DNA of 64,000 nt from Acidimicrobiales bacterium (GCA_050742435.1 JBOGIE010000001.1:1188-65187); one strand, 5' to 3'; counted from the stretch's first letter, positions 19,603-33,983 are shown. Numbers and translations: made by a program. The notes: generated from the letters alone by a model not told the origin.

Positions 19603-20262
19603 CTAGGCCAGGTCGTCGACGGCGAAGGCCCGGGGAGTGAGGGCGCCCAGGGCCAGGCAGGCCGGGCAGCACGCCTCGCCCGCCGCCTGCAGACCCCGCC
19701 GGGTGCCCCGCCGCCACAGCCAGAACGCCACCCCGCCGACGACCAGGACGGCCAGCACGGCGATGGCCGGCCCGCGGGCCTCGTCCAGCGCCTCCCGGGC
19801 TGCCGGGCCGAGCAGGTAGCCGAGGACGACGTGGAGCTGGATGAAGACGCTGCTTCCCAGGACCAGCGGGGGCAGGGCCCGGGCCGGGGCCAGGTTGGAG
19901 CTGCCGGCGGCGACGACGGTGACCGTGCGCAGGCCGGGCGTGGCCCGGCCGACCACCAGGGCGGCCGGGCCCCGGCGGTCGACCAGGGCGGTGGCCCGCT
20001 GCAGCCGCTCGGCGGTGAGCCCCAGCCGGGGCCCGAACCGCTGGAGCACGGCTCGGCCCGGCCCCCGGACCACGAAGAACAGGGTGGCCGTGCCCACCGC
20101 CGCCACCAGCTCCAGGGCGACGACCACCAGCAGGAGGGGGAAGCGCCCGGCCGAGGCCCGCTCGCCCAGGACCAGCAGGAGGATGTCGGACGGCACGGGG
20201 ACCGGCACGCCGGCCTCCATGGCGGCCAGCAGGGCGGCGAAGACGGGCAGCCCGTAGTTCAA
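19603..20262 (-). CDS. DedA family (VTT domain) membrane protein
   Basis: TTG at 20262 is preceded by AAGGAG and overlaps the upstream stop (TTGA, 20259-20262). The motifs EAGVPVPVPSDILLLVLG and ALVVGRATPGLRTV are DedA-like. Confidence 0.75.
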   Translation of the reverse strand: MNYGLPVFAALLAAMEAGVPVPVPSDILLLVLGERASAGRFPLLLVVVALELVAAVGTATLFFVVRGPGRAVLQRFGPRLGLTAERLQRATALVDRRGPAALVVGRATPGLRTVTVVAAGSSNLAPARALPPLVLGSSVFIQLHVVLGYLLGPAAREALDEARGPAIAVLAVLVVGGVAFWLWRRGTRRGLQAAGEACCPACLALGALTPRAFAVDDLA

Positions 20263-20705
20263 CGGTTCTCCTTGCGCCACACGAAGCGCAGGCCCGACCA
20301 CACGTCGGTCACCGCGCACACCTTGTTGTCGACCAGGCCCTGAGGCAGGCCGACCTCCCGCAGCACGTCCTCGGTGAGGTCGGTCGGGACCTTGGAGGAC
20401 CGCTTGGGCCAGGCCACCCAGAAGGCGCCCGCCGGCCGCACGGCGGTGGCCACGGCCGGGAACCGGCGCTCCAGCTCCCGGCGCTCGGTGACGAACAGCA
20501 CGGCCACGTCCACCTGGGGCGGGAGCCGGCGCACGATGCGCACGCCGGGCGGCAGGGGGGCGAGCTCGTCCGGGAACCCCTCGGGCGCGCCGAGCAGGGC
20601 CACCCGCGCCTCGGCCTTGATCCCCAGCTTCTGGTTCAGCGGGGTGCCGGAGTAGCCGACCACACCAAGAACAATGCCAGTTCGGTCGAGCTCGGACGGT
20701 CTCAT
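20259..20705 (-). CDS. DUF3052-like protein
   Basis: 148 aa. GYSGTPLNQKLGI ... AFWVAWPKR ... VWSGLRFVWR matches the pattern I recall for DUF3052. Confidence 0.6.
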   Translation of the reverse strand: MRPSELDRTGIVLGVVGYSGTPLNQKLGIKAEARVALLGAPEGFPDELAPLPPGVRIVRRLPPQVDVAVLFVTERRELERRFPAVATAVRPAGAFWVAWPKRSSKVPTDLTEDVLREVGLPQGLVDNKVCAVTDVWSGLRFVWRKENR

Positions 20706-20916: not shown

Positions 20917-20939
20917 AGCCGAGGAGGTCTCGTCGTCGC

Positions 20940-20986
20940 CTCTTTGTCCGCTGGACCACCGCCACGGTGGTCAGGCCGACAAAGAG
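20940..20986. terminator. Compound hairpin between convergent genes (candidate bidirectional terminator)
   Basis: The outer arms are CTCTTTGTC (20940-20948) and GACAAAGAG (20978-20986). The inner arms are GACCACCG (20954-20961) and CGGTGGTC (20965-20972). The structure abuts the methyltransferase stop at 20987. Confidence 0.45.
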
Positions 20987-21775
20987 CTACGGCTTCTCGG
21001 CGACGAGGAGCTTGTAGCCGGCGATCCCGGCCTCGACGGCCCGGGCGGCGGCGGCCACCTTGGCCCGGGCACCGTCGAAGTCGATGCCCTCCAGGGCGGC
21101 GACCTTGGCCATGCGGAAGGCGACCAGCCGGGCGTCGATCTGGTCGATCATTCGGGCCAGGGCGTCGTCGTGGTCCTCGGTGAGGGTGACCCGCAGCCCT
21201 TCGGCCTCGAGCAGGGAGACGTACTCGTCGAGCGACCGGGCGTCGGCCAGGCAGGCCACCCAGCCGGCCATGCTGCGGAGCTCGTCGTCGAGGCGGCTGG
21301 GATCGAGGGCGACGTCGGTGATGCCGAGGCGACCGCCCGGCCGCAGGACCCGGGCCAGCTCCCGGGCCGCGGTCGGCTTGTCGGGGAAGGTGCAGAAGGC
21401 GCACTCGCAGACCACGACGTCGACCGAGGCGTCGGCGAGAGGCAGCCGCTCGGCGTCGCCCACCGTGAAATGCACCCGGTCGCCGACCCCCTGCTCGGCC
21501 GCCCGGGCGTTGGCCTTGGCCACCGACTGCTCGCCCAGGTCGACCCCCTGCACCTCCACCCCGAACTCGGCGGCGAGCAGGAAGGCGGTGGCGCCAGGGC
21601 CGCTGGCCACGTCGAGCACCTTCTGGCCGGACCGCAGGTCGAGCGAACGAGCCAGGCGCCGGGTCAGCTCGAGGCCGCCCGGGTGGTAGCTCTCGCCCAG
21701 GATGAGGGCCACCACGTCGGACTGGTAGGAGCGGGCGCAGCAGGCCTTGGTCTCCTCGGCCGCCAGGTCCGTCAT
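20987..21775 (-). CDS. Class I SAM-dependent methyltransferase, ArsM/UbiE-like, with N-terminal CC motif
   Basis: ATG at 21775 overlaps the radical-SAM stop (ATGA, 21772-21775). The SAM-binding motif is VLDVASGPGA. Other features are ACCARSY...LGESYHPGG and VVCECAFCTFPDK. Confidence 0.8.
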   Translation of the reverse strand: MTDLAAEETKACCARSYQSDVVALILGESYHPGGLELTRRLARSLDLRSGQKVLDVASGPGATAFLLAAEFGVEVQGVDLGEQSVAKANARAAEQGVGDRVHFTVGDAERLPLADASVDVVVCECAFCTFPDKPTAARELARVLRPGGRLGITDVALDPSRLDDELRSMAGWVACLADARSLDEYVSLLEAEGLRVTLTEDHDDALARMIDQIDARLVAFRMAKVAALEGIDFDGARAKVAAAARAVEAGIAGYKLLVAEKP

Positions 21776-23331
21776 CGCAGGTTCTTGCCGATGTTGGTGG
21801 CGTCCTTCGGCTTGTGGGAGCCGCCGTTGCCTTCCCCGTTCCCCGCCGTCTTCGACCCGTAGCGGGTGGTGAGCAGCACGGGCTGCAGGCCGGTGGCGTT
21901 GGGCACGATGGTGGGGATGGGCACGCCCGAGAGCTCCTCGCGGATCTGCTCGCGGTAGCCGACGGAGTTGTAGGCGCAGAACGGGATGAGCCGCCCGTCC
22001 GGGGTGATCTCCTCGACGCAACACTTCATCAGGGCCTTGACGTTGAGGGTGTACGGGTCCTGGAAGTCCTGGATGACGATCATGAAGGACTTGTCGCCGA
22101 TCTCCTGGAGGGCCTCGGGCAGGTCGATGCCGCAGGTGGCGCACTCCAGGGGGGCGGTGGTGTTCCCGTCCGACCCGGCGGGCACGGCCGACGCCGACCA
22201 CAGCTTCTCCAGCGCCCCCCGCACGCTCATGTCGGGCATGACCCGGTTGCTGACGTAGTCGAGGTAGTCGTCGACGTTGACCAGCCGGGGGATGGGCACC
22301 ACGTTCTCCCCGTCGACCAGCAGGTAGGTGATCGACCGGCAGGTCGGGAAGCAGCAGGGGACGGGCACGAAGTCCGAGAGCTTGAACCACTCGGGGATCT
22401 GGTCGACCGCGCCGTGGATGATGTCGGCGTTGGTCAGGCGCTGCATGGGGTCGAACTCCACGTGGCGGCCGGAGTGGGTGACGGGCTGAAAGGCCACCGA
22501 CCGCACGGCGGGGTGCTTGACGCCGAACCTGATGATGTCGCCGATCTCGTGCTCGTTCAGGCCCTTCTCGATGGCGGCCACAAGCGACACGCCCAGGCCG
22601 AACTCGGCGCAGTTGTCGAGGGCCTTCTGCTTGGCTGCCCGCAGGTCGCGGCCCCGGATGGCCAGGTGGGTCGACTCCTCGAACCCGTCGAACTGCATGT
22701 AGATGACCGGCTTGAGCTCGGCCAGCTGGGACAGGAACTTGCGGTCGTGGGCCAGGCGGATGCCGTTGGTGTTGAGCGTGACCATGTGGACGCCCTTGTC
22801 CTTGGCCATCTTGATGAAGTCGAGGATCCGGGGGTGGATGGTGGGCTCGCCCCCGCTGAACATGACGACCTCGGGCTCGCCCTCGGCGCGCACGAAGGCG
22901 TCGAGGCCGGCCTCGACCTGGTCGAGGGTCAGGGAGAACCCGTCGGGCTGGTGGCCGGAGTCGGCGAAGCAGATGGGGCAGTCCAGGTTGCAGTTGCTGT
23001 TGACCTCGATGATGCCCAGGCAGGCGTGCTGCTTGTGCTCCGGGCACAGGCCGCAGTCCAGCGGGCAGCCGTCCTTGACCTCGGTCTGGGTCTCCAGGGG
23101 GATGGTGCCCGGCTTGTTGTATCGGAGGGAGTCGAAGTACATCTTGGCGTCGGAGTAGAGGAGGGCCTCGAACTTCCCGTGCTCGGTGCAGCGCTTGCGC
23201 AGGAAGACCTTGTTGTCCTTGACGTTCACCTCGGCGTCGATGACGGTCTTGCACACCGGGCAGATGCTCTTCGTGTACTCGAGGAACACCTCGTCCCGGT
23301 CGACTTTTTGCCGAGGTGGCGTAAGGGTCAC
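21772..23331 (-). CDS. Radical SAM protein, COG1964 / Tes (GDGT-MAS)-like, with multiple Fe-S cluster motifs
   Basis: 519 aa with a GTG start preceded by GGGAGG. The N-terminus has CPVC...C.EHG. Next come CPLDCGLCPEHKQHAC (C89/93/96/104) and CNLDCPIC (C114/118/121, CX3CX2C). The C-terminus has PCCFPTC and KCC...FCAYN. Confidence 0.8.
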   Translation of the reverse strand: MTLTPPRQKVDRDEVFLEYTKSICPVCKTVIDAEVNVKDNKVFLRKRCTEHGKFEALLYSDAKMYFDSLRYNKPGTIPLETQTEVKDGCPLDCGLCPEHKQHACLGIIEVNSNCNLDCPICFADSGHQPDGFSLTLDQVEAGLDAFVRAEGEPEVVMFSGGEPTIHPRILDFIKMAKDKGVHMVTLNTNGIRLAHDRKFLSQLAELKPVIYMQFDGFEESTHLAIRGRDLRAAKQKALDNCAEFGLGVSLVAAIEKGLNEHEIGDIIRFGVKHPAVRSVAFQPVTHSGRHVEFDPMQRLTNADIIHGAVDQIPEWFKLSDFVPVPCCFPTCRSITYLLVDGENVVPIPRLVNVDDYLDYVSNRVMPDMSVRGALEKLWSASAVPAGSDGNTTAPLECATCGIDLPEALQEIGDKSFMIVIQDFQDPYTLNVKALMKCCVEEITPDGRLIPFCAYNSVGYREQIREELSGVPIPTIVPNATGLQPVLLTTRYGSKTAGNGEGNGGSHKPKDATNIGKNLR

Positions 23332-23427
23332 AGTGGCCTCCCGTCATGGCGCGCCGCGATGAATCGGCCCGAAAGCTAGCACCGGGGTCTTCGGGGCCCG
23401 GACCTCAGGCGGATGCCTGCGGGCCGG

Positions 23428-23778
23428 CTACAGGGGCGGATCCGCCGCGACCGAGATGCGGGAGAGGCGCCCGTCGGCCGCCACCTCCACCTCGTCCACC
23501 CCCTCCAGGAGCGTCGCTCCCTCGGCGGTCACGATGGCCCACCGGAACGTCCCACCCTCGACCGGGCCGAGCCGGGCGACGCTGGCGCCCGCCATCCGGG
23601 TCTGCAGGGCGACGATCAGGCCCTCCACCGCGTCCCGGCCGCGGAACGTCCCGGTCGGCCCGGTGAACTCGAAATCGTCGGTGACCGAGGCGGTCAGCAG
23701 CTCGGCGCGGACCATGGGGTCGGGGTCGTTCCACGCCGCCACGTAGCCGTCGACGGACGCCTCGAGGTCAGCCGGCAT
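23428..23778 (-). CDS. SnoaL-like / NTF2-fold protein
   Basis: ATG at 23778 lies within track ORF 23428-24690. The 116-aa product has YVAAWNDPDP...GRDAVEGLI, a pattern typical of small NTF2-like proteins. Confidence 0.6.
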   Translation of the reverse strand: MPADLEASVDGYVAAWNDPDPMVRAELLTASVTDDFEFTGPTGTFRGRDAVEGLIVALQTRMAGASVARLGPVEGGTFRWAIVTAEGATLLEGVDEVEVAADGRLSRISVAADPPL

Positions 23779-23847
23779 CGGCCGCGACGGTACCCGGCAC
23801 GCGTCCCCGCTACAGTCCCGCAACAATCTCTGTTGATACGAGGTGGG

Positions 23848-24729
23848 ATGGTTGGAAAGCGGCAGGTGGGTGTGGCGGCCGCCGTCCTGGCCCTGCTGGT
23901 GGGCGCGGCGTGCGGGGACGGGGGCTCGACCGAGGCGGGTGGCGGGGGGACGCTGCGGGTCAGCGGGTCCACGACGGTGAACCCGGTCGCCGCCGACGCC
24001 GCCGAGGTGCTGCGCAAGCAGGGGCTCAAGATCACCGTCGACGCCCAGGGCGGCTCGGCCGGCGGCATCTCCCAGCTGGCCCAGGGTCAGGTGGAGATCG
24101 CCATGAGCTCCAAGCCCATCGGCGACGCCGACCGCGCCGCCTTCCCGTCCGCCGAGTTCGTCACCACCCAGATCGGCTCGGACGCGGTCGGCATCATCGT
24201 CCGCCGCGAGCTCTACGACGCCGGGGTCAGGAACCTCACCCGCGACCAGCTCAAGGCCCTCTTCGAGGGCCGCATCCGGAGCTGGCGGGAGCTGGGCGGC
24301 CCCGACGTGGAGGTTTTCGTCTACGACAAGGAGCCGGGACGGGGCACCCGTGAGGTGATCGACACGTACCTCTACGGCAGCGCCAAGGCGCCGCCGCCGC
24401 CCCAGTCGAACAACTTCGCCATCGTGGGAGGGAACGAGGAGGGCCGGGCCAAGGTGCTGTCGACCACCGGCGCGGTCACGCCGCTCTCCACGTCGTTCAT
24501 CACCGGCTACCCCAAGCTGGCCGCGGTGGCGGTCGACGGGGTCGAACCCACGCCGGCCCACATCATCGACCGGTCCTACGCCATGTCCCGGCCGCTCTAC
24601 CTGGTCTCCAACGGGCCGCCCACCGGCGCGGCAAGGACCTTCGTCGACTACCTCGTAGGCGACGGGGGGCAGAAGCTGGTCACCAGGCATGGGTACCTGA
24701 CCCTCGCCGAGCTGGGCGCCCGCCGCTGA
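23848..24729 (+). CDS. PstS-family (PBP-like 2) substrate-binding lipoprotein of a second Pst-like ABC system
   Basis: ATG at 23848 lies within track ORF 23413-24729. It has a lipobox (LLVGAAC). Other motifs are LRVSGSTTVNP, GGSAGGISQLAQGQVEIAMSS and RPLYLV. Confidence 0.8.
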   Translation: MVGKRQVGVAAAVLALLVGAACGDGGSTEAGGGGTLRVSGSTTVNPVAADAAEVLRKQGLKITVDAQGGSAGGISQLAQGQVEIAMSSKPIGDADRAAFPSAEFVTTQIGSDAVGIIVRRELYDAGVRNLTRDQLKALFEGRIRSWRELGGPDVEVFVYDKEPGRGTREVIDTYLYGSAKAPPPPQSNNFAIVGGNEEGRAKVLSTTGAVTPLSTSFITGYPKLAAVAVDGVEPTPAHIIDRSYAMSRPLYLVSNGPPTGAARTFVDYLVGDGGQKLVTRHGYLTLAELGARR

Positions 24730-24839
24730 TCAACTCGCTGGTCCCGCGGTCGAGGTCGAGGTTCCCCTGGCTGGCCGCCGGGCTGGGTACGGCCGCCGGC
24801 GCGGCCGGGCTGGCCCTCCTCCTCATCGTCGCCTTCCTC

Positions 24840-26507
24840 GTGGTCGGTGCCGGATCGGGCGCACTCGACTGGGGCCGGTTGCTCACCTCGGCCGTGTGGG
24901 ACTTCCCCCGCGGCCGGTTCGGCGCCACGGCCATGATCTGGGGGACGGCCGCGGTGGCCGCCATCGCCCTGCTCATCGCCGCGCCGGTGGGGTGGGCGGT
25001 GGCCGTGGCCATCCACGAGGTGGCGCCGGTGCGCGGGCGACGCCTGCTGCGGTCGGGCGCCGAGCTGCTGGCCGTCGTTCCGTCGATCGTGTACGGCCTG
25101 GTCGGGGTGGCCTACGTCCGGCCCTTCGTCGCCCGGGTGGCCGACGTCCCCGGGGGCGACAGCCTGCTGGCCGGCGGGCTGGTGCTGGCCGTCATGGTCC
25201 TGCCCACGATCGTGGCCGTCTCGGTCGACGCCCTGGCCGCGGTGCCCGCCTCGGCGCGGGAGGCGGCCGCGGCCTGCGGGCTCACGAGGACCGAGGTGAT
25301 CCGCTCGGCCGTCCTTCCCCAGGCCCGCAGGGGCATGCGGGCCGGGCTGCTGCTCGGACTGGCCCGGGCCCTCGGCGAGACGGTGGCGGTGTTCCTGGTC
25401 GTGGGCCGGGCCGACGGCCGGCTGCCGGAGTCCCTGGGTGCCATGTTCGACGTGCTCGTCCGCCCGGGCCAGACCCTGACCACCAAGCTGAACGGTCCCG
25501 AGAGCGTCCTGGCCGGCACGTCGGGACCGCACTGGGCCGCCCTCTGCGGCCTCGGCCTGATCCTGCTGGTGGCGGTGGCCGGGCTCACGGTCGCCGGCGC
25601 CGGCCACGGCCGCCCGGGGCCGGCCGGCCGGATGGTGCGCACCCGCCTGCACGGGGCCCACCGGGCCCGCCGCCTACGGGACCGTGCCGGGCGCGCCGTC
25701 CTGGCCGCCGTCCTGGCCCTGCCGTTCCTGGCCATGGCCGCCATCGTCCTGGTGGCGGCGACCAAGGGGTCCCGGGCCCTCGACCCCGGGTTCTGGTGGG
25801 CGGCGGCCGAGGGGGCCAGCGGTGGGGGGATCCGGGAGCAGCTGGCCGGCACCGCCGTGCTGGTGATGGTCGCCGGACTGATCGCCGCGCCGGTGGGGCT
25901 GGGCCTGGGCCTGGTGATGTCCGAGTACGCCCCACCCGCGGCCAGCCGGTGGATGCGGACCCTCACCCTGACCCTGGGCGGTGTGCCCTCGATCCTGCTC
26001 GGGCTCTGGGGCTACTGGCTCTTCTCCACCCGGATGGGGTGGGGCAAGAGCTGGCTGGCCGGGAGCATCGTGCTGGCCGTCGTCGCCATCCCCCCCGTGG
26101 TCATCGCCGTGGCCGCCGCGGCCGCCGCCCTGCCCCCGGCCCGGCGGGAGGCCGCCCTGGCCGTCGGCCTGCGGCGGAACCAGCTGGTCCGCTCCGTCCT
26201 CCTGCCCCAGGCCGTCCCCGGCCTGGTCACCGGCCTCCTGCTCGGGCTGGCCCGGGCCGCGGGGGAGACGGCCCCCCTCCTGTTCACCGCCACCGTCTTC
26301 AACGGGGCGCCCGTCCTACCCTCCGGCATCCGGGAGTCGCCCGTGGCCTCCCTCCCCACCCACATCTTCGTGCTGGCCCAGGACGCCGCCGATCCCGAGG
26401 CCCTTCGGGTGGCGTGGGGGGCGGCCCTGGCCCTCATCGTGGTCGCCGGGTTGCTGGTGGCCGGCGCCGTCCCCGCCCGCCGCTGGATGCACCGGAGCGG
26501 CGCATGA
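24840..26507 (+). CDS. Fused PstC-PstA-like ABC permease (two MetI-type domains in one polypeptide); true start probably upstream and non-canonical
   Basis: There are two EAA loops, SAREAAAACGLTRTEVIRSAVLP and PARREAALAVGLRRNQLVRSVLLP. The first canonical start (GTG 24840) falls inside a predicted TM helix. The reading frame stays open back to CTG 24726. Confidence 0.8.
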   Translation: MVGAGSGALDWGRLLTSAVWDFPRGRFGATAMIWGTAAVAAIALLIAAPVGWAVAVAIHEVAPVRGRRLLRSGAELLAVVPSIVYGLVGVAYVRPFVARVADVPGGDSLLAGGLVLAVMVLPTIVAVSVDALAAVPASAREAAAACGLTRTEVIRSAVLPQARRGMRAGLLLGLARALGETVAVFLVVGRADGRLPESLGAMFDVLVRPGQTLTTKLNGPESVLAGTSGPHWAALCGLGLILLVAVAGLTVAGAGHGRPGPAGRMVRTRLHGAHRARRLRDRAGRAVLAAVLALPFLAMAAIVLVAATKGSRALDPGFWWAAAEGASGGGIREQLAGTAVLVMVAGLIAAPVGLGLGLVMSEYAPPAASRWMRTLTLTLGGVPSILLGLWGYWLFSTRMGWGKSWLAGSIVLAVVAIPPVVIAVAAAAAALPPARREAALAVGLRRNQLVRSVLLPQAVPGLVTGLLLGLARAAGETAPLLFTATVFNGAPVLPSGIRESPVASLPTHIFVLAQDAADPEALRVAWGAALALIVVAGLLVAGAVPARRWMHRSGA

Positions 26508-27187
26508 CGGCACAGCCCGCGGTGCGCCTGGGCGACCTCGTCGTCCGCCACGGGAGGCGGTCGCTCGTCGGCCCCGTCTCCTTTGAGCTGCCCCGGGCCA
26601 GCACCCTGGGGCTGCAGGGGCCCTCCGGCTCGGGCAAGTCGACGACCCTGCGGGCCCTCGTGGGGCTGCTCCCGGCACCGCTCAAGGTCTCGGGGAAGGT
26701 CGAGGTGCTGGGCCGGGACGTGTGCGCTCCGGGTGTCGACATGGCCGAACTGCGCGCTCGCGCCGTCCTGGTGGGCCAGACGCCGGTGGTCTTCCCGGCG
26801 TCGGTCCTGGCCAACGCCGCCTTCGGGTTGCGCCACGTGGCCCGCATCCCCCGCGACGAGCTGCGCCGGCGCAGCGAGGCGGCTCTGGTGGAGGCCGGTC
26901 TGTGGGAGGAGGTCGCCGACCGCCTCGACGCCCCGGCCGACCAGCTCAGCGTGGGCCAGCGCCAGCGGCTGTGCCTGGCCCGCGCCCTGGCCCTCGACCC
27001 CGAACTGCTCCTCCTCGACGAGCCCACCAGCGCCCTCGACCCCGCGGCAACCCGCACGGTGGAGGACGCCATCACCAGCCTCCGGGGCCGCACCGTGCTC
27101 ATCGTGTCCCACGACCAGGACCAGCTGGCCCGGCTGTGCGCGGCGGTGGTCGACCTGGCCCCGGCCATCGGCTCCCCGCTCTCGTAG
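26504..27187 (+). CDS. PstB-like ABC ATPase (divergent)
   Basis: ATG at 26504 overlaps the permease stop (ATGA). Motifs are Walker A GPSGSGKST, signature LSVGQRQRL, Walker B LLLLDEPTSALD, and the PstB-like GLWEEVADRL. Confidence 0.8.
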   Translation: MTAQPAVRLGDLVVRHGRRSLVGPVSFELPRASTLGLQGPSGSGKSTTLRALVGLLPAPLKVSGKVEVLGRDVCAPGVDMAELRARAVLVGQTPVVFPASVLANAAFGLRHVARIPRDELRRRSEAALVEAGLWEEVADRLDAPADQLSVGQRQRLCLARALALDPELLLLDEPTSALDPAATRTVEDAITSLRGRTVLIVSHDQDQLARLCAAVVDLAPAIGSPLS

Positions 27188-27197
27188 CCTCGGAGGG

Positions 27198-27695
27198 ATG
27201 GACCTCCGTGAGCTCCAGCGACCCCTCAAGCAGCGGTACCGGGCGGAGCCGGCCAGCGCCCTTCTCACCCTCCGGGCGTCGGCCAGCCAGCAGGACAGCC
27301 CCATGGCCTGCTCGGTCGACATCGGCCGGGCCGTCTACCAGGCCCAGGCCCACGCTGGGGTGGGCGGGGCGGGCACGGCGGCCTGCTCGGGCGACCTCCT
27401 GCTGGGCGCCCTGGCGGCCTGTGCCCAGGTCACCTACCAGATGGTCTCCACGGCGATGGGCGTGCCCATCGCCTCAGTCGAAGTGACGGTGGAGGGCGAC
27501 CTCGACCTGCGCGGCACGCTCGGGGTCGACCCCGAAGCACCGGTGGGGTTCACCGCCATCCGGCTGGGCGTCGACGTCGACGCTCCGGACGCCACGCCGG
27601 AGCAGCTGGCGTCGGTGCTGGAGAAGACCGAGCGCTACTGCGTCGTCCTCCAGACGCTCACCGCGCCGCCCGCGGTGACTGTCGAGCCCGCCTAG
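27198..27695 (+). CDS. OsmC/Ohr family protein
   Basis: ATG at 27198 is preceded by GGAGGG. Motifs are LLLGALAACAQVTY and TERYCVV. Confidence 0.75.
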   Translation: MDLRELQRPLKQRYRAEPASALLTLRASASQQDSPMACSVDIGRAVYQAQAHAGVGGAGTAACSGDLLLGALAACAQVTYQMVSTAMGVPIASVEVTVEGDLDLRGTLGVDPEAPVGFTAIRLGVDVDAPDATPEQLASVLEKTERYCVVLQTLTAPPAVTVEPA

Positions 27696-28045
27696 CGGCA
27701 GCAGCCGTCGTTGCCGCCCGGGCGGGCCAGCGGACCGACGGCCTCGGGGTCGAGGAGCTCCATGGCCAGGGCGCGGGCCGCGGCCATGCCCTCCGGGCTG
27801 ACGGCGTAGAGGGAGAAGCCCTCCGACCGCCGGGCCTGCACCAGCCCGGCGCCGGCCAGGACGCGGAGGTGGTGACTCACGAGGGGCTGGGGGAGCCCTT
27901 CGGTCTCGACCAGGTCGCGGACACAGCGCTCCTTGTCCCGCAGCGCCTGGAACAGCCGCAGGCGGTTGGGCTCGGCGAGCGCCCGGAGCACCGCCAGCAC
28001 GTCGGCATGGGCTCCGGCTGCGGTGGTCGACTTGGCCGTGGTCAC
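27692..28045 (-). CDS. ArsR/SmtB family metalloregulator
   Basis: GTG at 28045. Motifs are LRALAEPNRLRLFQAL..ERCVRDLVE...QPLVSHHLRVLAGAGLV, with a C-terminal GGNDGCCR. Confidence 0.8.
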   Translation of the reverse strand: MTTAKSTTAAGAHADVLAVLRALAEPNRLRLFQALRDKERCVRDLVETEGLPQPLVSHHLRVLAGAGLVQARRSEGFSLYAVSPEGMAAARALAMELLDPEAVGPLARPGGNDGCCR

Positions 28046-28086
28046 GGCAAATCGTACGCCTGCGACCGGCCGGAGGGGGCGGGGCC

Positions 28087-28482
28087 TCATCGGTGGGCGT
28101 GCTCGATGAGGTGGCAGAACGACCCGTCGTGGCGGGGCATGGTCCGGGCCCGGGAGGAGAGCAGGCGCAGGTCGGCCCGCATCCGCTCGAGGGCGGCGAT
28201 GCGCTCGGAGATGTCGCGGGCCCGGCGGTCGACCAGGTCGAGGACGTGGCCGCACGGCTCCTCACCCCGGTCACGGAAGGCCAGGATCTCCCGGATCTCC
28301 CCCAGGGTGAAGCCCACGGCCTGGGCGGCCTTCACGAAGCGCAGCCGGTCGCCGGCCGACTGGTCGTAGCTCCGGTAGCCGTTGGGGCGGCGCGCCGGCG
28401 GAGGAAGCAGGCCGATCTGCTCGTAGTACCGGATGGTCTTGGCCGGCAGGGAGACCGCCTCGGCCAGCTCCCCGATCCGCAT
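28087..28482 (-). CDS. MerR family (heavy-metal/redox-responsive type) transcriptional regulator
   Basis: The HTH is MRIGELAEAVSLPAKTIRYYEQIGLL and GYRSY. There are C-terminal Cys and His residues (EEPCGH, FCHLIEHAH). Confidence 0.85.
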   Translation of the reverse strand: MRIGELAEAVSLPAKTIRYYEQIGLLPPPARRPNGYRSYDQSAGDRLRFVKAAQAVGFTLGEIREILAFRDRGEEPCGHVLDLVDRRARDISERIAALERMRADLRLLSSRARTMPRHDGSFCHLIEHAHR

Positions 28483-28500
28483 GACGCCAACAATAGCGCC

Positions 28501-28532
28501 TTGACCTTCCAGCGGGCAGGAACGTGTACGGT
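28501..28532 (+). promoter_or_regulatory. MerR-type promoter: TTGACC - 20-bp spacer - TACGGT, divergent from merR
   Basis: TTGACC lies at 28501-28506 and TACGGT at 28527-28532, with an over-long 20-nt spacer typical of MerR-activated promoters. The ATG at 28539 is 7 nt downstream, which implies a leaderless mRNA. Confidence 0.5.
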
Positions 28533-28538
28533 GCGTCC

Positions 28539-28805
28539 ATGGCTCAGCGAATCGAGATCTTCAGTGCCGGTTGCCCGGTGTGCGCCGAAGGGGAGGCCCG
28601 GGTGCGGGCCCTGGCCGGCGAGGACCAGGAGGTCGTCGTCCACGACCTGCACGGCGACAAGGCGGCCGCTGCCCGAGCGGCCGAGCAGGGCATCAAGGCC
28701 GTGCCCGCGGTGGTGGTCGACGGGCAGCTGCTGGCCTGCTGCCGGAACACCGGGCCCACGGAGGAGGAGCTGGTCGCGGCGGGGATCGGACGCCCTGGGG
28801 CGTGA
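28539..28805 (+). CDS. Thioredoxin-fold / glutaredoxin-like protein with CPVC motif
   Basis: Motifs are IEIFSAGCPVC, VPAVVVDG and ACC. The track ORF starts at GTG 28524, but I prefer ATG 28539. Confidence 0.65.
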   Translation: MAQRIEIFSAGCPVCAEGEARVRALAGEDQEVVVHDLHGDKAAAARAAEQGIKAVPAVVVDGQLLACCRNTGPTEEELVAAGIGRPGA

Positions 28806-29176
28806 GGCGCCTCGCCGTCCTCGCCCTGGCGGTGCTGTTCGTGTCCTGCGGCGGCGGCGGTGAGTCGGCCTCGACCGTCGACGACCCTGTCCTGCGTCCC
28901 GAGGACCAGGTCGAGGTGTCAAAGGCGTGCCAGGACCAGTTCGTGGCCAGCCACAACATGGAGACCGCCGGTGAGCCGACGGCCTCGGCCTTCCTGCCCT
29001 CCGTGCAGGCCTGCTCCAGCCTGGCCGAGTGGTCCTCCGCGGCCCGGGCGTCGGGCGCCCGCCTGAACGGTCAGGAGCCCCGCTTCGTTTACGGCGTGTG
29101 CACCGCGGCGCCCGATCCCGCTGTCCGGGCGACGACCATCTGCCGGCAGGCCGAGGCCGAGGCCCGCATCCGCTAG
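28802..29176 (+). CDS. Lipoprotein, Cys-containing, unknown function
   Basis: GTG at 28802 overlaps the upstream stop (GTGA). The lipobox is LAVLFVSCGG. 124 aa. Confidence 0.6.
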   Translation: MRRLAVLALAVLFVSCGGGGESASTVDDPVLRPEDQVEVSKACQDQFVASHNMETAGEPTASAFLPSVQACSSLAEWSSAARASGARLNGQEPRFVYGVCTAAPDPAVRATTICRQAEAEARIR

Positions 29177-29640
29177 CCCCGACCGCGGTTGCCCCCGGGC
29201 CCGCTCCCGCTGCTGCCCTCCCCGGCGGCGAGGGCGTCGAGGGCGGCCAGCAGCTCCTCCTTCTCGGCGTCCGACAGCCGGGCCGACGGGTGGGCCAGGA
29301 GGTAGGCCCGGGGAGGCATCGAACCGTCGGTGACCGACTCGACGAGGTCGTCGGCGTCCTGGTCGCGGTCCCATTCCGAGAAGTTCAGCTCGTCGCGACC
29401 CTCGTCCACGTCGTTCTGTACCAGCCACGACGCCGGCGCCACATTGCTGTACCACGGCCAGCGGGTCTCGTTGCTGTGGCAGTCGTAACAGGCGGCCACG
29501 GCGAGGCGGCGACCCTCGGCACGAATCCACGGCGCGTCCCGGGTCACCGGCGGGTTGTCGTGGTCGCGGCCGTAGGGGACGAACTGCACCAGGACGAACA
29601 GGCCGGCCAGCCCGAACACCAGCATGCGCACGATCCGCAT
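29173..29640 (-). CDS. Haem-binding domain (Haem_bd, CxxCH) membrane-anchored protein
   Basis: ATG at 29640, with an N-terminal TM helix. AACYDCHSNETRWPWYSNVAPASWLV is typical of PF14376-like proteins. Confidence 0.75.
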   Translation of the reverse strand: MRIVRMLVFGLAGLFVLVQFVPYGRDHDNPPVTRDAPWIRAEGRRLAVAACYDCHSNETRWPWYSNVAPASWLVQNDVDEGRDELNFSEWDRDQDADDLVESVTDGSMPPRAYLLAHPSARLSDAEKEELLAALDALAAGEGSSGSGPGGNRGRG

Positions 29641-29767
29641 GCCTGTCGACCCTACGGCGCGCTCAGCACCAGTGGGAGCTGCCAGGACCGGCGGACGTGG
29701 CCCCTCGGTACTGGGTCTGGTACCGCGTCGTCCCCGAGCGTGTCGCCGCCCTGGGGGCCTCCCTCGC

Positions 29768-31297
29768 CTAGCCCTGCACCACGTCAAGTCGGCGGTCGAA
29801 GAGCCGTTCGAACAGCTCCCGCTTGCGGCGGGCGCCCCACAGCTCGACGGCGATGTCGGCCTCGGCCTTGGCGACGAGCCGCACCCGTGAGCCGTCCAGC
29901 ACCACGTCGATCCCCTGGACCTTGTCGGCCCGGCCCCGGTCGAGCCCGTCGGCCACCCGCAGCAGGGCGGCCAGGCGGGTGAGCCGGTCGCGGGCCTCCC
30001 GGTCGAGGGAGGCGAAGGGCTCGTGGGAGGGCTTGGGCCCTCCGCCCCGGTGGGCCCGGGCCAGGGCGGCCACGAAGTCGATCTCCTGGGGGGTGAACCC
30101 GCGCAGGCGGCCGTGCTGGATCAGGTAGGCGGAGTGCTTGTGGTGCGACTCGGTGGAGACGTGCTCCCCGATGTCGTGCAGCAGGGCCGCGTGTTCCAGG
30201 AGCTCGCGGTCGTCGGCGCCCAGGCCGTGCAGAGACGACGTCCGGTCGAACAGGTCGAGGGAGAGGCGGGCGGTCTGGCGGCCGTGGCCCTCGTCCCAGT
30301 TACAGCGCCGGGCCAGGTGCAGGACGGAGGACATCCGGATGGCCCGAGGGTCCTCCGACCAGTCGACCGCCTCGTGGCGGGGGATGGCGTCGAGGACGAT
30401 GCCCTCCCGCAGGGCCCATTCGCTCACGGTCATGCGGTCGAACCCGAACAGCTCCATGGCGGTGAGGAGGAGGATGGAGCCGGTGGGGATGATGTCGGCC
30501 CGCTTGGCCTCCAGGCCGGGGAGCCCGGCCCGCTCGGAAGACCGCCGGGCCAGCAGCTCCTCGTGCAGGGGAAGGAGCTCGTCGCGGGTGAAGCTGAACT
30601 GGTTGATGGCCCGAGGGACGCTGCCGGTCCGGCGGGCGGCGACCATGCGGGCCAGGTCGCAGAACGTGCCGCTGCTGCCCACGGCCATGGCCGGCTGGAG
30701 GTGGGCCACGTCGTCGGCAAGGGGGGCCAGCACGCTGGTGACCCGCTTTTCGACCCGGCGAACGTCGTCGGCGGTGAGCGGGTCGCCGGTCACCAGCTCG
30801 GCCGACAGCCGGGCCACTCCGAGGCGGACGCTCGTCGCCCAGTGCAGGCTGGACCGGTCGCCCACCATCAGCTCGAGGCTGCCGCCGCCCAGGTCGAGGC
30901 AGAGGGCAGGGCCCGGGTCGATCACCACGCTGGCCCGCACCGCCTCGAAGATCAGGCGGGCCTCCTCCTCCCCGTTGATGACCCGCACCTTGACGCCGGC
31001 CTCGGCGGCCATGCGGTCGATCACCTCGCCGCCGTTCTCCGCCTCGCGCAGGGCCGCGGTGGCCATGGCGTGGATCTCCTCGGTGCCCGCGCCGGAGGCC
31101 AGCTTGCGGAACCGGTCGACCGTCGCCACCGCCCGGTCGGCCAGTGCCGGCGGGATGCGGCCCTCCCGCCCCACGGCGTCGCCCAGACGGAGCATCTCCT
31201 TCTCCCGGATGAGGGGGACGAACGTCCCGTCGGCGTGGGCGTCGACCACCAGGAGGTGGAAGGAGTTCGACCCCAGGTCGAAGGCGGCGATTCGCAT
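29768..31297 (-). CDS. ppx: Exopolyphosphatase / Ppx-GppA family phosphatase with HD domain
   Basis: ATG at 31297. Motifs are MRIAAFDLGSNSFHLLV, LDLGGGSLEL and the HD region LLHDIGEHVS..HHKHS. Confidence 0.85.
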   Translation of the reverse strand: MRIAAFDLGSNSFHLLVVDAHADGTFVPLIREKEMLRLGDAVGREGRIPPALADRAVATVDRFRKLASGAGTEEIHAMATAALREAENGGEVIDRMAAEAGVKVRVINGEEEARLIFEAVRASVVIDPGPALCLDLGGGSLELMVGDRSSLHWATSVRLGVARLSAELVTGDPLTADDVRRVEKRVTSVLAPLADDVAHLQPAMAVGSSGTFCDLARMVAARRTGSVPRAINQFSFTRDELLPLHEELLARRSSERAGLPGLEAKRADIIPTGSILLLTAMELFGFDRMTVSEWALREGIVLDAIPRHEAVDWSEDPRAIRMSSVLHLARRCNWDEGHGRQTARLSLDLFDRTSSLHGLGADDRELLEHAALLHDIGEHVSTESHHKHSAYLIQHGRLRGFTPQEIDFVAALARAHRGGGPKPSHEPFASLDREARDRLTRLAALLRVADGLDRGRADKVQGIDVVLDGSRVRLVAKAEADIAVELWGARRKRELFERLFDRRLDVVQG

Positions 31298-31355
31298 CGC
31301 GACCGAGGCTAGGGCTGCGGGGACCGGGTTAGGTTCACCTGACCCGCGGAGCGGG

Positions 31356-31601
31356 ATGAACGGAGCCCGCTTCGGCGTTGTGTACGTCGTGAGAGGAGAC
31401 CGTGTCGAGATCGTCATCGACGCCGGTGGGCAGGCCAGGACCTACGAGGTGACGGCCACGCGCGCCGGGCGGCGGGTCGACGTGCGCACCGGGCGCGGCG
31501 TCGTCGAGGTGACCGAGCTGACCCGGGGCGGCACGCCGGTTCGCACCGCCCGCTTCATGGCCAGCCGGGTCCTCGCCCTGGTCGAGCACCCCGCGGCCTG
31601 A
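31356..31601 (+). CDS. Small hypothetical protein (81 aa)
   Basis: The ATG is in frame within track ORF 30138-31601. Third positions are GC-rich. I recognise no family. Confidence 0.45.
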   Translation: MNGARFGVVYVVRGDRVEIVIDAGGQARTYEVTATRAGRRVDVRTGRGVVEVTELTRGGTPVRTARFMASRVLALVEHPAA

Positions 31602-31610
31602 CCGTTTCGC

Positions 31611-32048
31611 TTAGCCGGGCGGGGGCAGGTACCGGGCCGCCGCGCCCGCATCGAGTACCCACGTCGCCCCCTTCTCCGTCTCCTTCGACCGGCGGACGCG
31701 CAGGCCGTCGAGCACGTCCTCCATCACGTCCCCGTGGGTACAGAGCGCGACGTAACTGGCGCCTTCCAGCAGGCTGCGGACGAGGGTCAGCCCGGCCCGC
31801 CCGGCGCCCTCGGCCAGGTCGTTCGTGGGTTCCACGGCGAGGCCGCGGGCCGCGGCCACCGGTTCCACGGTCTGGGTGCAGCGCAGGTACGGGCTGGACA
31901 GCACCCGGGCGAGCCTGAACCCGGCCAGGACGCCGACCAGTCCCCCGGCCTGGGCCTGGCCCTGCGGCGACAGGGGCCGGTGCTCGTCGGGCCCCTCCCA
32001 GCGATTCCGGTCGCCGGCCTCGGCGTGGCGGACGAAGAGGACGGCCAC
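31611..32048 (-). CDS. Histidine phosphatase family protein (SixA-like)
   Basis: Motifs are LFVRHAEAG (RHG-type motif), LSPQG and ALCTHGDV. 145 aa. Confidence 0.75.
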   Translation of the reverse strand: MAVLFVRHAEAGDRNRWEGPDEHRPLSPQGQAQAGGLVGVLAGFRLARVLSSPYLRCTQTVEPVAAARGLAVEPTNDLAEGAGRAGLTLVRSLLEGASYVALCTHGDVMEDVLDGLRVRRSKETEKGATWVLDAGAAARYLPPPG

Positions 32049-32063
32049 GGCGCACGCCGTCCC

Positions 32064-32477
32064 TCAGACGGCCTGGACGAGCGCGTCCAGCACGGGCAGG
32101 TCGCGTTCGTAGGTCAACACGGCCCGGGCCCGGGCCAGCGGCAGCCACCGCACCTCGTCGACTTCGGCGGTGGGCGTGAACCGGCCCCCGGCGGGGGTCA
32201 TGGCCCAGTACCGGACCTGCTTGGGCCGGTCCCGGCGGTCGCGGTAGGACGTGGAGCCGAGCTCGGGGCCGAGCTGGCAGCGCAGGCCGGTCTCCTCCTC
32301 GACCTCCCGCAGGGCGGCGGCCGCGTGGTCCTCCCCGGGGTCGAGTTTCCCCTTGGGGACCGTCCAGTCGTCATAGCGCGGGCGGTGGACGAGCAGGACC
32401 TCCACGTCGCCGGACGGCGCCCGGCGCCACACGACCCCCCCGGCGGCCTGCACGACGGTGGTGTCCGGCGCGCTCAC
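32064..32477 (-). CDS. NUDIX hydrolase
   Basis: GTG at 32477 overlaps the CHAD gene stop (GTGA). The Nudix box is GKLDPGEDHAAAALREVEEETG. Confidence 0.85.
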   Translation of the reverse strand: MSAPDTTVVQAAGGVVWRRAPSGDVEVLLVHRPRYDDWTVPKGKLDPGEDHAAAALREVEEETGLRCQLGPELGSTSYRDRRDRPKQVRYWAMTPAGGRFTPTAEVDEVRWLPLARARAVLTYERDLPVLDALVQAV

Positions 32478-33919
32478 AGCCAGGACCGGAGCTTCGTCTT
32501 CGAGGCCTTTTCCCAGGCCGTGCGCCACTCCTTCCGGGCCGCCGCCGCGTCGGCCCGCTGGACGGCGATGAGCTCGCCGGCGGCCAGCGACAGCTCGGGA
32601 TCGGCGCCCTCGACCGCCGAGCGCAGCCAGGCCTCGGCCACCATGGCGTCCTGGTGGTCGCCCAGCACGGTCTGGACCCTGGCCATGGCCGCGGCGAAGG
32701 CGGCCGCCTTCTTGCCGGCCACCGGCGCCGCCGCCTCGGCGGCATAGCGGGCCCGCTTGGCCAGGATGCGGACCCGGTGCAGATCCTCGGGGGCGGGATC
32801 GTCGCCCAGCGCGTCGACGGCCCGGCGCAGCCTCCGCCACGGCTTGGCCACGAGGGGCGGGACCACGTCGGCCGCCTTGGCCCGGGCCGACCGCCGGCAC
32901 GGCGGCTGCCCGGCGGCGGCCACCAGGCGGTCGAGGAGGGTGACGTAGCGGTCGCTGTGCATGGCCTGCAGCAGCGCATCCCGGGCGTCGTCGCGCTCCT
33001 TGGCCAGGCGCCGGAACAGCGGGGCCAGGCCGGCGGTGTCCGGTTCGGGCAGCGTGGCCGCCTGGCGGCGGAGGCGCTCGAGCAGCACGTCGGCGTCCCG
33101 CACCGCGCCCAGGGCGGCGGCCAGCCACCGCAGCTCGACGCGGAGCGACGACAGCCACTCCTCGTCCAGCAGGGGGGCGAACGTGCGCAGGTCGGAGCGC
33201 AGGCGGCGGGAGCCCACGCGCGCCTGGTGCACGTCCTCGGGGTCGTCGCCGATGCGGACCCCTGGGTCGTGGCGCATGATGCGTTCGACCGCGCCGCTCA
33301 CGGCCTGGCGCACCAGGTCGGCGGCCGGTGGATTCTTCCCCAGGGCGACCGGGGTGACCTCGGGGGGCTCGAGCGCACGGGGGCCGAGGGCCCGGATGAC
33401 CTTGGGTGTCGATTCCGGCTCGCCGGCTCCGGCGGCGCGGAGGCGGGCCACCACGGCGTCGAGCAGGCCGGTTGGCGGCCGGTCGCCCAGTTCCACCTCG
33501 ACCTCCCGGAAGCGGGTGGCCACCCGCCCGCCGTGGAGCACGGACACCTCGTCGTCGACCACCTCGGCCACGACCGTGCCCTCCCGGTCGCGCAGGTCCA
33601 CGCCGGTGCGCACGGTACGGATGTGGGCCACGGGAACCAGGGGCGTGTGCCGGGCGTAGGCCCGGGTCAGCGAGCCCACCGCGTCGGGCACGGCCTCGGG
33701 CGGCCCCTCGAAGTGCAGCTCCCGCCGCACCATCGCCGGCCCCTCATCGCCCTCGGGGAGCTTGACCGTCCAGCCGCTCCCGTCGCCCGAGCGGTGCCGG
33801 ACGGTGACCCCCCACCTCGCCAACCGCAGGTCCTCGGTGTCGTAGTAGACGGCGACCAGGGTGAGCGGGGCGCGGGGCACGGGGGTGACGTCGTCGGCCA
33901 CGCCGTCGAGGGAGGGCAC
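32474..33919 (-). CDS. CYTH + CHAD domain protein (polyphosphate-associated); N-terminus probably extends upstream of the first canonical start
   Basis: The C-terminal half has the CHAD helical pattern (VHQARVGSRRLRSDLR, LHRVRILAKRARYAAE). The CYTH ExExK motif (TETEVKL) is encoded in frame at 33943-33961, upstream of GTG 33919. Confidence 0.8.
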   Translation of the reverse strand: MPSLDGVADDVTPVPRAPLTLVAVYYDTEDLRLARWGVTVRHRSGDGSGWTVKLPEGDEGPAMVRRELHFEGPPEAVPDAVGSLTRAYARHTPLVPVAHIRTVRTGVDLRDREGTVVAEVVDDEVSVLHGGRVATRFREVEVELGDRPPTGLLDAVVARLRAAGAGEPESTPKVIRALGPRALEPPEVTPVALGKNPPAADLVRQAVSGAVERIMRHDPGVRIGDDPEDVHQARVGSRRLRSDLRTFAPLLDEEWLSSLRVELRWLAAALGAVRDADVLLERLRRQAATLPEPDTAGLAPLFRRLAKERDDARDALLQAMHSDRYVTLLDRLVAAAGQPPCRRSARAKAADVVPPLVAKPWRRLRRAVDALGDDPAPEDLHRVRILAKRARYAAEAAAPVAGKKAAAFAAAMARVQTVLGDHQDAMVAEAWLRSAVEGADPELSLAAGELIAVQRADAAAARKEWRTAWEKASKTKLRSWL

Positions 33920-33983
33920 CTCGAAGCCGGGCCACGCCCCCAGCTTGACCTCGGTCTCGGTCGCCCCGATCCGGGCGGGCGTC

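Follow-up and report, generated by a model that had tools for sequence, protein, structure and literature searches.

The window analyzed here, a stretch of 64,000 nucleotides (nt) from an Acidimicrobiales bacterium (GCA_050742435.1, JBOGIE010000001.1:1188–65187), encodes on its minus strand a radical S-adenosylmethionine (SAM) protein of 519 amino acids (aa; rSAM, 21772–23331) and, directly downstream, a Cys-rich methyltransferase of 262 aa (MT, 20987–21775), in which Pfam finds class I methyltransferase domains and which resembles both ArsM and the DVU_1556 family. Comparison of this rSAM–MT pair with related loci and proteins showed that the two genes are an obligate module, which marks a distinct bacterial branch of the Tes/GDGT-MAS/TrsS rSAM superfamily. 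The superfamily divides by partner into archaeal Tes, TrsS, Lgt-linked, and ArsM-like-linked types, since the TrsS, Lgt-linked, and ArsM-like-linked clades have different partners; the window rSAM is of the last type. The window has a G+C content of about 72%, and its nearest relatives are metagenome-assembled genomes (MAGs) of Acidimicrobiales/Actinomycetota, with about 90% protein identity.

A conserved pair of genes

The rSAM gene starts with a GTG codon, just before which lies the sequence GGGAGG (23337–23342). At its other end, direct reading confirmed the translational coupling proposed in an earlier annotation made from the DNA alone (hereafter the sequence-only reading): the TGA stop codon of rSAM and the ATG start codon of MT overlap within the four nucleotides ATGA (21772–21775). 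The proposed coupling of a Tes/GDGT-MAS-like multi-cluster rSAM to an ArsM-like MT not only holds in the window but is general. We surveyed the pair in 80 genome loci and 80 metagenome loci (L-numbers below denote genome or metagenome loci, P-numbers representative homologous proteins); many of these loci are related to each other, and the counts are not independent events. MT follows rSAM in 78 of the 80 genome loci, and the remaining two end at a contig edge. The genome loci belong to Actinomycetota, Chloroflexota, and Dormibacterota, and the cultured actinomycetotal carriers include Streptomyces, Micromonospora, Amycolatopsis, Saccharopolyspora, Sinomonas, Specibacter, and Streptacidiphilus; the pair was also found in Mycobacterium. 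Among the metagenome loci, pairing reaches relatives that are 51–60% identical, one type of which is from Acidobacteriota, including a Bryobacteraceae MAG. The pair thus recurs in more than 130 loci from at least four phyla. Of 128 pairs, 81 retain the 4-nt overlap, and all intergenic gaps are shorter than 100 nt.

Presence of MT also tracks a Cys signature of rSAM, C327 together with C397xxC400. The signature is found in 121 of the 123 strict pair loci. With overlapping and contig-truncated cases included, MT is carried by about 137 of the 140 loci that have both the signature and downstream sequence (it is missing from L101, L130, and L131). Conversely, none of 17 signature-negative relatives has an adjacent MT, the only weak match lying 2 kb away and on the opposite strand (L137). 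One locus, L146, keeps the CxxC pair, has Pro at position 327, and contains MT. These data show that the rSAM–MT partnership is obligate. That the two enzymes are independent and their adjacency incidental is effectively refuted, and we consider it extremely improbable, given adjacency in nearly all signature-positive loci across the sampled phyla, its co-variation with the Cys signature, the conserved overlap, and the MT–rSAM fusion proteins of the TrsS clade (P0219 and P0241). In a Streptomyces locus (L079), an integrase-like open reading frame (ORF), recognized by eye, lies upstream of the pair (1300–2670); together with the patchy distribution of the pair within genera, it hints at movement of the pair on genomic islands.

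Family placement and cluster sites of rSAM

Pfam recognizes a Zn_ribbon_HMPTM and a Radical_SAM domain in rSAM, the latter at residues 109–269, and the best match by sequence among solved structures is GDGT-MAS of M. jannaschii (7TOL, E = 7e-80). The AlphaFold2 (AF2) model has a predicted local distance difference test (pLDDT) score of 82 and a predicted template modeling (pTM) score of 0.84, with confidence below 50 at residues 375–400 and low confidence at 499–519. Foldseek aligned it with 7TOM/7TOL at a template modeling (TM) score of 0.75–0.79 over about 490 columns with 32% identity, and the next fold, MoaA, reached a TM score of 0.39. As modeled, rSAM shows the four-domain architecture of GDGT-MAS, with a predicted rubredoxin-like iron site, an N-terminal [4Fe-4S] cluster, the radical SAM [4Fe-4S] cluster, and a C-terminal cluster domain.

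The Cys motifs listed in the sequence-only reading are all present and in the proposed order: CPVC (residues 24–27), RCTEHG (47–52), CPLDCGLCPEHKQHAC (89–104), and CNLDCPIC (114–121), followed by the C-terminal PCCFPTC (325–331), ECATC (396–400), KCC (436–438), and FCAYN (451–455). Conservation was counted over 79 rSAM and 73 MT orthologs. All 19 Cys residues of rSAM are conserved, 18 of them in every ortholog and C241 in 99%. The rubredoxin-like iron site C24-x2-C27-x20-C48-x2-H51 (23179–23262; this and all following sites of the pair are on the minus strand) has the spacing of C9x2C12x20C33x2H36 in GDGT-MAS (PMC9433317), and its four residues are invariant. The same is true of the Cys and His residues of the N-terminal auxiliary [4Fe-4S] motif, C89-x3-C93-x2-C96 with H99/H102 (23026–23067), which aligns with C73/C77/C80 and His of GDGT-MAS, and of the radical SAM motif C114-x3-C118-x2-C121 identified by Pfam (22969–22992).

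The C-terminal domain is characterized by a combination of shared and clade-specific residues. To map active-site residues, an L-INS-i alignment with MJ0619 and clade representatives was used; the PDB chain numbering of GDGT-MAS equals native numbering plus 20, and residue equivalences use that offset. C331, C437, and C452 correspond to the C-cluster ligands C338, C455, and C470 of MJ0619. In the segment C326-C327-x3-C331 (22339–22356), which is 100% Cys at these positions in the orthologs, C326 is also frequent in TrsS and Lgt-linked clades and absent from most archaeal Tes, and C327 is specific to the window clade. An extra pair, C397-x-x-C400 (22132–22143), sits in an insert that MJ0619 and the Tes clade lack; it is invariant, co-varies with the MT partner, and falls within the low-confidence loop of the model. 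Counting the three ligands together with C326, C438, C327, C397, and C400, the C-terminal domain therefore holds eight Cys residues. The C-cluster region itself is remodeled (21970–22074): I420-Q421 replace C438-Met439 of MJ0619 and E441 replaces Tyr459, while C437/C438/C452 are kept, with Q421, C437, C438, and C452 conserved in at least 97% of orthologs. Gln421 thus takes the place of the labile ligand Met439, which is kept in 9 of 10 Tes and 14 of 14 TrsS representatives. At the position of Tyr459, sequences of the window clade carry E, Q, H, F, or V; in GDGT-MAS, this Tyr lies beside the substrate's terminal carbon and shows strict conservation among archaeal homologs (PMC9433317). Residues 340–420 of rSAM, equivalent to the second lipid-pocket region of Tes, align poorly and contain both the CxxC insert and the model segment of lowest confidence. 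Taken together, the alignment shows a catalytic corner that is rebuilt relative to Tes. The MT coupling, the Cys signature, and the loss of Met439/Tyr459 were not described for this clade in the literature that we searched.

The C-terminal tail of rSAM (residues ~470–519, 21772–21921), whose last residues coincide with the low-confidence end of the model, is missing from MJ0619. P477, N478, and G492 are conserved in at least 97% of orthologs, and S493, N513, and G515 are invariant in a 12-sequence alignment. We speculate that this tail might serve as a docking peptide for MT.

To place rSAM within its superfamily, we retrieved 8161 homologs from 1.84 billion representatives and calculated a neighbor-joining tree from 98 full-length sequences (94 representatives, four close relatives, and the window protein), with clades labeled by NCBIfam. 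The tree is midpoint-rooted and carries no support values, so that its deep branching order is provisional. Tes and TrsS form neighboring clades, and the window clade and its nearest outgroups lie outside both and score below both NCBIfam cut-offs. The window rSAM reaches 338.4 bits with the Tes model (NF045702, cut-off 450) and 351.7 bits with the TrsS model (NF045646, cut-off 490), compared with 545.8 bits for a true Tes (P0253) and 661.7 bits for a TrsS representative (P0209). Based on these scores, its position outside the Tes and TrsS clades, and the loss of Met439 and Tyr459, rSAM is not a Tes equivalog. The Tes identity suggested by the sequence-only reading therefore stands for the fold and the cluster ligands, which do align, and no other characterized family is closer than the Tes type; it does not stand for the curated Tes score, the tree position, and the two active-site residues.

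We nevertheless weighed whether rSAM could be a true bacterial synthase of tetraether or other membrane-spanning lipids, of the iso-diabolic acid or branched glycerol dialkyl glycerol tetraether (brGDGT) type, with MT modifying the lipid or its head group. Besides the shared GDGT-MAS fold and most cofactor ligands, this is favored by the abundance of the clade in soil phyla, including Acidobacteriota/Bryobacteraceae, where Tes homologs have been proposed as brGDGT enzymes (PMC8941075, PMC10087280), and by the finding that GDGT-MAS M439A and Tyr459 variants remain active (PMC9433317). Failure to reach the Tes cut-off, the position outside the Tes clade, and the poorly aligning second lipid-pocket region with its CxxC insert argue against it, as does the obligate, ArsM-like, Cys-rich MT, which would have no role in Tes chemistry. 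Moreover, carriers of the pair include Streptomyces, Micromonospora, Amycolatopsis, Sinomonas, and Mycobacterium, for which, as far as we are aware, membrane-spanning lipids are not known. Only 3 of 14 Acidobacteria that produce iso-diabolic acid were found to have Tes homologs (PMC13159169). The occasional CDP-alcohol phosphatidyltransferase or SRPBCC neighbors of the pair speak for such a synthase, but no ether-lipid genes recur within 5 kb of the 123 strict pair loci. On balance, we regard such a synthase as unlikely.

The methyltransferase, the gene neighborhood, and possible chemistry

The 262-aa MT (METHYLTRANSFERASE) scores best in NCBIfam with the DVU_1556 family, where its 149.4 bits narrowly miss the cut-off (NF045667, 155 bits). 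With the ArsM model (PRK11873/NF008823, cut-off 263 bits), it reaches 113.4 bits over residues 46–202, and it also matches UbiE/MenG models. By plain sequence, sugar O-methyltransferases are the nearest solved structures, and ArsM matches at an E-value of about 1e-10; a single-sequence AF2 model (pLDDT 53.6) was unusable. The sequence-only reading had pointed to an N-terminal CC and a CECAFC motif aligned with the As(III)-binding Cys region of ArsM, and both are present. Five Cys residues, C12, C13, C125, C128, and C175, are conserved in at least 99% of the MT orthologs. In an alignment with Chlamydomonas ArsM (5EVJ), C125 of the motif C123-E-C125-A-F-C128 (21392–21409; conserved in 100% for C125, 99% for C128, and 85% for C123) falls on the As(III)-binding Cys of the ArsM “SNC” motif, and C175 (21251–21253; 100% conserved) occupies the second As(III)-binding Cys position (“GCLAGA”, or “GECLAGA” in 5EVJ). 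In CmArsM, the As(III)-binding cysteines are presumably those numbered C174 and C224. The vicinal pair C12-C13 (21737–21742) lies in an N-terminus that does not align with ArsM models. The CEC motif and the C175 equivalent are common to MT and the DVU_1556-family methyltransferases of Desulfobacterota, which lack the N-terminal CC; C128 is likewise extra in the window MT. These features suggest that MT is a soluble SAM methyltransferase with a putative ArsM-type thiolate site. A class I methyltransferase with such cysteines would be an unlikely kind of enzyme for making the methyl branches of brGDGTs.

Given this site, the pair might act on a metalloid: MT would be a methyltransferase for arsenite (or Sb/Se/Te), and rSAM would form or remodel a carbon–metalloid bond, as in the ArsS/ArsM and ArsL/ArsM systems. 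ArsM is the best named MT family after DVU_1556, and conservation covers both As(III)-binding Cys residues as well as the N-terminal Cys pair. A radical SAM gene next to arsM is a known arrangement for C–As bond formation (PMC8552651, 10.1101/2024.02.01.577332). In five loci (L014, L016, L017, L018, and L020), a cluster of ArsR, a putative ArsI, an aquaporin, and ArsC directly follows the pair; ars structural genes are 5–8 kb away in two others (L044 and L080), and ArsR/SmtB regulators are found in 12 of the 123 strict pair loci. In the window, regulators of the ArsR/SmtB and MerR types lie about 4.4–5 kb from the pair, beside the Pst operon. However, ars structural genes within 5 kb are confined to 5 of the 123 loci, all from a single lineage, and a strong arsenic link is not supported statistically. 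Its score of 113 bits leaves MT far below the ArsM cut-off of 263, the closest solved methyltransferases are sugar O-methyltransferases and not ArsM, and the pair is very widespread in soils with scarce arsenic. Nor does a recurrent MerA-like neighbor serve as a true mercuric reductase: this candidate was rejected, as it scores below the MerA cut-off and its scanned sequence ends without the terminal CC pair. We therefore consider a metalloid system of this kind rather improbable. The putative ArsI of the ars cluster in the five loci is a glyoxalase-fold protein with a vicinal CC, which, as read from its sequence, may be an ArsI-like C–As lyase.

To assess the neighborhood of the pair, ORFs lying up to 5 kb away from it in the 123 strict pair loci were clustered in an unbiased way. 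The most frequent families were a MerA/Lpd-like flavoprotein disulfide reductase (36 loci), which also matches quinone reductase models, DUF427 (17), extracytoplasmic function (ECF) sigma factors (15), DUF3179 (13), and SRPBCC (11), followed by a CC-motif membrane protein, CDP-alcohol phosphatidyltransferase, and MauE (8 each), VKOR (7), and thioredoxin (6). Thiol/disulfide oxidoreductases are the commonest neighbors (46–54%), being found in 57 of the 123 loci and in 38 of the 70 loci with at least 3 kb of sequence on both sides. Lipid-type neighbors (SRPBCC, CDP-alcohol phosphatidyltransferase, or Lgt) are present in 26 of 123. In Acidobacteriota, the link to redox genes extends to a three-gene operon, rSAM–MT–VKOR, with overlapping genes (VKOR-family gene at 9267–9665 in L103, 10312–10710 in L163, and 10329–10733 in L164); in L163, a MauE/DoxX–thioredoxin fusion is also encoded 1.3 kb downstream of the pair. 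Given the frequent thiol/disulfide enzymes and the occasional ars genes nearby, a methylated metalloid or thiol product, which the sequence-only reading had offered as its alternative, fits the neighborhood better than its lipid reading.

Another function suggested by analogy, in this case with TrsS, is maturation or modification of a cofactor or quinone and not of a membrane lipid. TrsS lies within a molybdenum-enzyme maturation cluster, and MocA–TrsS fusions exist; the window MT almost reaches the DVU_1556 cut-off and also matches UbiE/MenG, and several neighbors are quinone-linked (VKOR, MauE/DoxX, SRPBCC, and the flavoprotein with quinone reductase matches). On the other hand, genes of the molybdenum cofactor, the xanthine-oxidase family, or quinone biosynthesis are not among the recurrent neighbors in the 123 loci, rSAM is not TrsS (352 bits against a cut-off of 490) and lacks the TrsS-type Met, and a lipid tail is the sole known substrate of the fold. 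Such a role therefore also appears improbable. Literature on DVU_155x, COG1964, and DUF427 provided no functional lead.

As a tentative proposal, which we hold to be possible and put forward as a working model, the pair would activate a C–H bond of a lipid-like chain by radical chemistry and then install a methylated heteroatom. As in Tes, the 5′-deoxyadenosyl radical would take a hydrogen from a hydrophobic chain, acyl or polyprenyl, at an unactivated carbon, and the resulting carbon radical would be captured not by a second lipid tail but by a heteroatom at the Cys-rich C-terminal site. The simplest such heteroatom would be sulfur, coming from a cluster or persulfide, since a C–S(cluster) intermediate is established for Tes (PMC9433317). 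The partner MT would then methylate the captured heteroatom, making the pair a “split methylthiotransferase”, and the Cys residues would be recycled by neighboring enzymes (flavoprotein disulfide reductase, VKOR, MauE, or thioredoxin-type proteins). As(III) or Se could replace S in the same scheme. A hydrophobic substrate is hinted at by the tunnel of Tes, in which lipid tails are bound (PMC9433317), by the lipid-type neighbors, and by the Lgt-linked sister clades. The HdrD-like Fer4/CCG protein of TrsS loci was counted with the evidence for redox partners.

A more specific variant, in which the Tes-like enzyme would create a radical at the terminal carbon of a membrane-lipid tail and join this carbon to arsenic or a different soft heteroatom that its ArsM-like partner would handle, to give a terminal dimethylarsinoyl (or methylthio/methylseleno) lipid, strikes us as quite improbable. 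Arsenic-containing fatty acids and hydrocarbons bear a terminal Me2As(O) group. We know of no established biosynthesis for these compounds, and our literature search found no radical SAM route to them.

Several observations weigh against the proposed installation of a methylated heteroatom. We know of no terminal methylthio lipid from these phyla, and S-methylation needs no ArsM-type cysteines. The eight C-terminal Cys residues could merely bind a fourth Fe–S cluster for electron transfer, and the loss of Met439/Tyr459 alone does not exclude Tes chemistry, as the corresponding GDGT-MAS variants stay active. A redox partner within 5 kb is missing from about half of the loci, and their wider neighborhood is heterogeneous. 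VKOR and MauE normally function on the membrane's outer face, but both enzymes of the pair look cytoplasmic. Finally, the low model confidence at residues 375–400 and the type and rooting of the tree limit the structural and phylogenetic arguments.

The distinction between clades matters for the use of these genes as markers. Bacterial Tes homologs in genomes and metagenomes have been counted as evidence for brGDGTs or membrane-spanning lipids (PMC8941075, PMC10087280, PMC11868695), while their role is unconfirmed (PMC8941075, PMC9433317, PMC11868695), as reviews up to 2026 agree (PMC13459092). Our analysis indicates that these homologs are not one thing: the ArsM-like-linked, Lgt-linked, and TrsS clades differ, and the first of these, distributed over Actinomycetota, Acidobacteriota, Chloroflexota, and Dormibacterota, has lost two Tes hallmarks and gained a Cys signature that tracks its partner. 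If this is true, gene-based inference of brGDGT sources requires resolution at the clade level, a heterologous test of the ArsM-like-linked clade should co-express both genes, and the pair may make a heteroatom-bearing lipid or metabolite of a new class. Species in culture that carry the pair include Sinomonas humi, Amycolatopsis jejuensis, Saccharopolyspora cebuensis, Micromonospora yasonensis, and Specibacter cremeus.

Around the pair in the window, the downstream limit of the operon is probably marked by a stable hairpin across the MT stop codon (20934–20991, minus strand; −35.7 kcal/mol, z = −4.66), which none of 200 shuffled sequences equaled in stability. The hairpin has no U-tail and was therefore missed by the consensus terminator scan; consensus promoter/terminator and Rfam scans of the region yielded nothing useful. 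Beyond the hairpin, a 148-aa ORF (20259–20705) has no Pfam or NCBIfam match and is not conserved, and a VTT/DedA gene (~19603–20250, minus strand) has weak matches to UptA/DedA models. The sequence-only reading had taken the DedA gene as a clue to lipids. The gene is indeed nearby, but the clue fails: DedA as a functional partner was rejected, since the hairpin sets it outside the operon and such genes are rare near pairs (2 of the 123 strict pair loci, and the window). The Cys-rich tail of its product (GEACCPACLALG) is unusual for DedA. On the upstream side, a 116-aa ORF (23428–23778, minus strand) ends 96 nt before rSAM and is a lineage-specific neighbor, found directly upstream of rSAM in five close relatives with 44–53% identity. 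It was scanned against NCBIfam only, with no match; its sequence reads as putatively NTF2/SnoaL-like, and we infer that it may be a member of the operon.

Further upstream, a phosphate/polyphosphate block lies beside the pair (23830–36119), with genes for PstS, a fused PstC–PstA (555 aa), PstB, and Ppx/GppA, as well as for a His_Phos_1 protein, NUDIX, CYTH–CHAD, and PPK1; PstS is near the pair in four related loci as well (L002, L004, L008, and L010). The two regulators mentioned above are encoded at 27692–28482 (minus strand). One is an ArsR/SmtB-type metalloregulator with a C-terminal CC, and in L004 an ArsR that is 65% identical to it directly follows MT. The other is a MerR-family regulator of the heavy-metal type (CadR/MerR/ZntR-like, below all cut-offs), whose longest ORF overlaps that of the ArsR/SmtB protein.

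Comparison with known systems

The closest characterized relative of rSAM is Tes/GDGT-MAS (MJ0619; 7TOL, 7TOM; NF045702), with which it shares the fold over the whole chain, the rubredoxin-like site, the N-terminal cluster, the radical SAM motif, and three C-cluster Cys residues. Met439 and Tyr459 of Tes are Gln and Glu in rSAM, which has C326 and the clade-specific C327, C397, and C400, and its second lipid-pocket region aligns poorly. In addition, rSAM always occurs with an MT partner, and no such partner is described in the Tes literature examined.

The TrsS (seleno)protein system of Desulfobacterota (NF045646/NF045667) likewise pairs a Tes-like rSAM with a CEC…C methyltransferase and, like the window pair, has extra Cys residues in the C-terminal domain and a disulfide or Fe–S redox partner. 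Unlike the window rSAM, TrsS has retained the equivalent of Met439 and has neither C327 nor C397xxC400. No U was present in any of the 120 TrsS sequences retrieved, in which selenocysteine was looked for. In the TrsS loci L161 and L162, the gene order is MoeA, a xanthine-oxidase-family aldehyde oxidoreductase, the HdrD-like Fer4/CCG protein, DUF7479, and a DVU_1556 methyltransferase, continuing with C_GCAxxG_C_C, TrsS, an AMP-binding enzyme, XdhC, and MocA/HD, which suggests a link of the rSAM family to molybdenum-enzyme biology. None of these molybdenum-enzyme neighbors (aldehyde oxidoreductase, XdhC, MocA, MoeA, AMP-binding enzyme, and C_GCAxxG_C_C) is present in the window or recurrent in the 123 loci. 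Fusions within the superfamily (P0219, P0241, P0176, P0200/P0209, and P0214) comprise methyltransferase–TrsS, Lgt–radical SAM, MocA(+HD)–TrsS, and TrsS–DUF5714 proteins.

The Lgt-linked bacterial clades (P0149, P0163, and P0144; fusion P0176) have the same zinc ribbon, N-terminal cluster, and radical SAM core as the window clade. They differ from it in that they mostly lack the three C-cluster Cys residues and have no ArsM-like partner. Instead, their rSAM genes adjoin, overlap, or are fused with genes of Lgt-family membrane proteins and, in one case, also adjoin a methyltransferase of the ICMT/PEMT type. Among relatives that lack MT, an ArsP_1-family permease follows rSAM in L140 (8516–9406) and an ICMT/PEMT-family membrane methyltransferase in L156 (8499–9089), both with Lgt-family genes nearby.

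ArsM and the pathways that combine it with a radical SAM enzyme (ArsS/ArsM and ArsL/ArsM) resemble the pair in gene adjacency, in the class I methyltransferase fold, in both As(III)-binding Cys residues, and perhaps in the N-terminal Cys pair. ArsM has a long C-terminal domain, which the window MT lacks, and the window rSAM is of the Tes type, in contrast to the ArsS or ArsL type of the organoarsenical pathways. The MiaB/RimO methylthiotransferases, finally, offer an analogy of mechanism only, as they would share with the proposed chemistry radical C–H activation, sulfur from an auxiliary cluster, and a methyl group from SAM (discussed in PMC9433317). Their homology to the pair is limited to the radical SAM core, and both activities reside in a single MiaB/RimO polypeptide.

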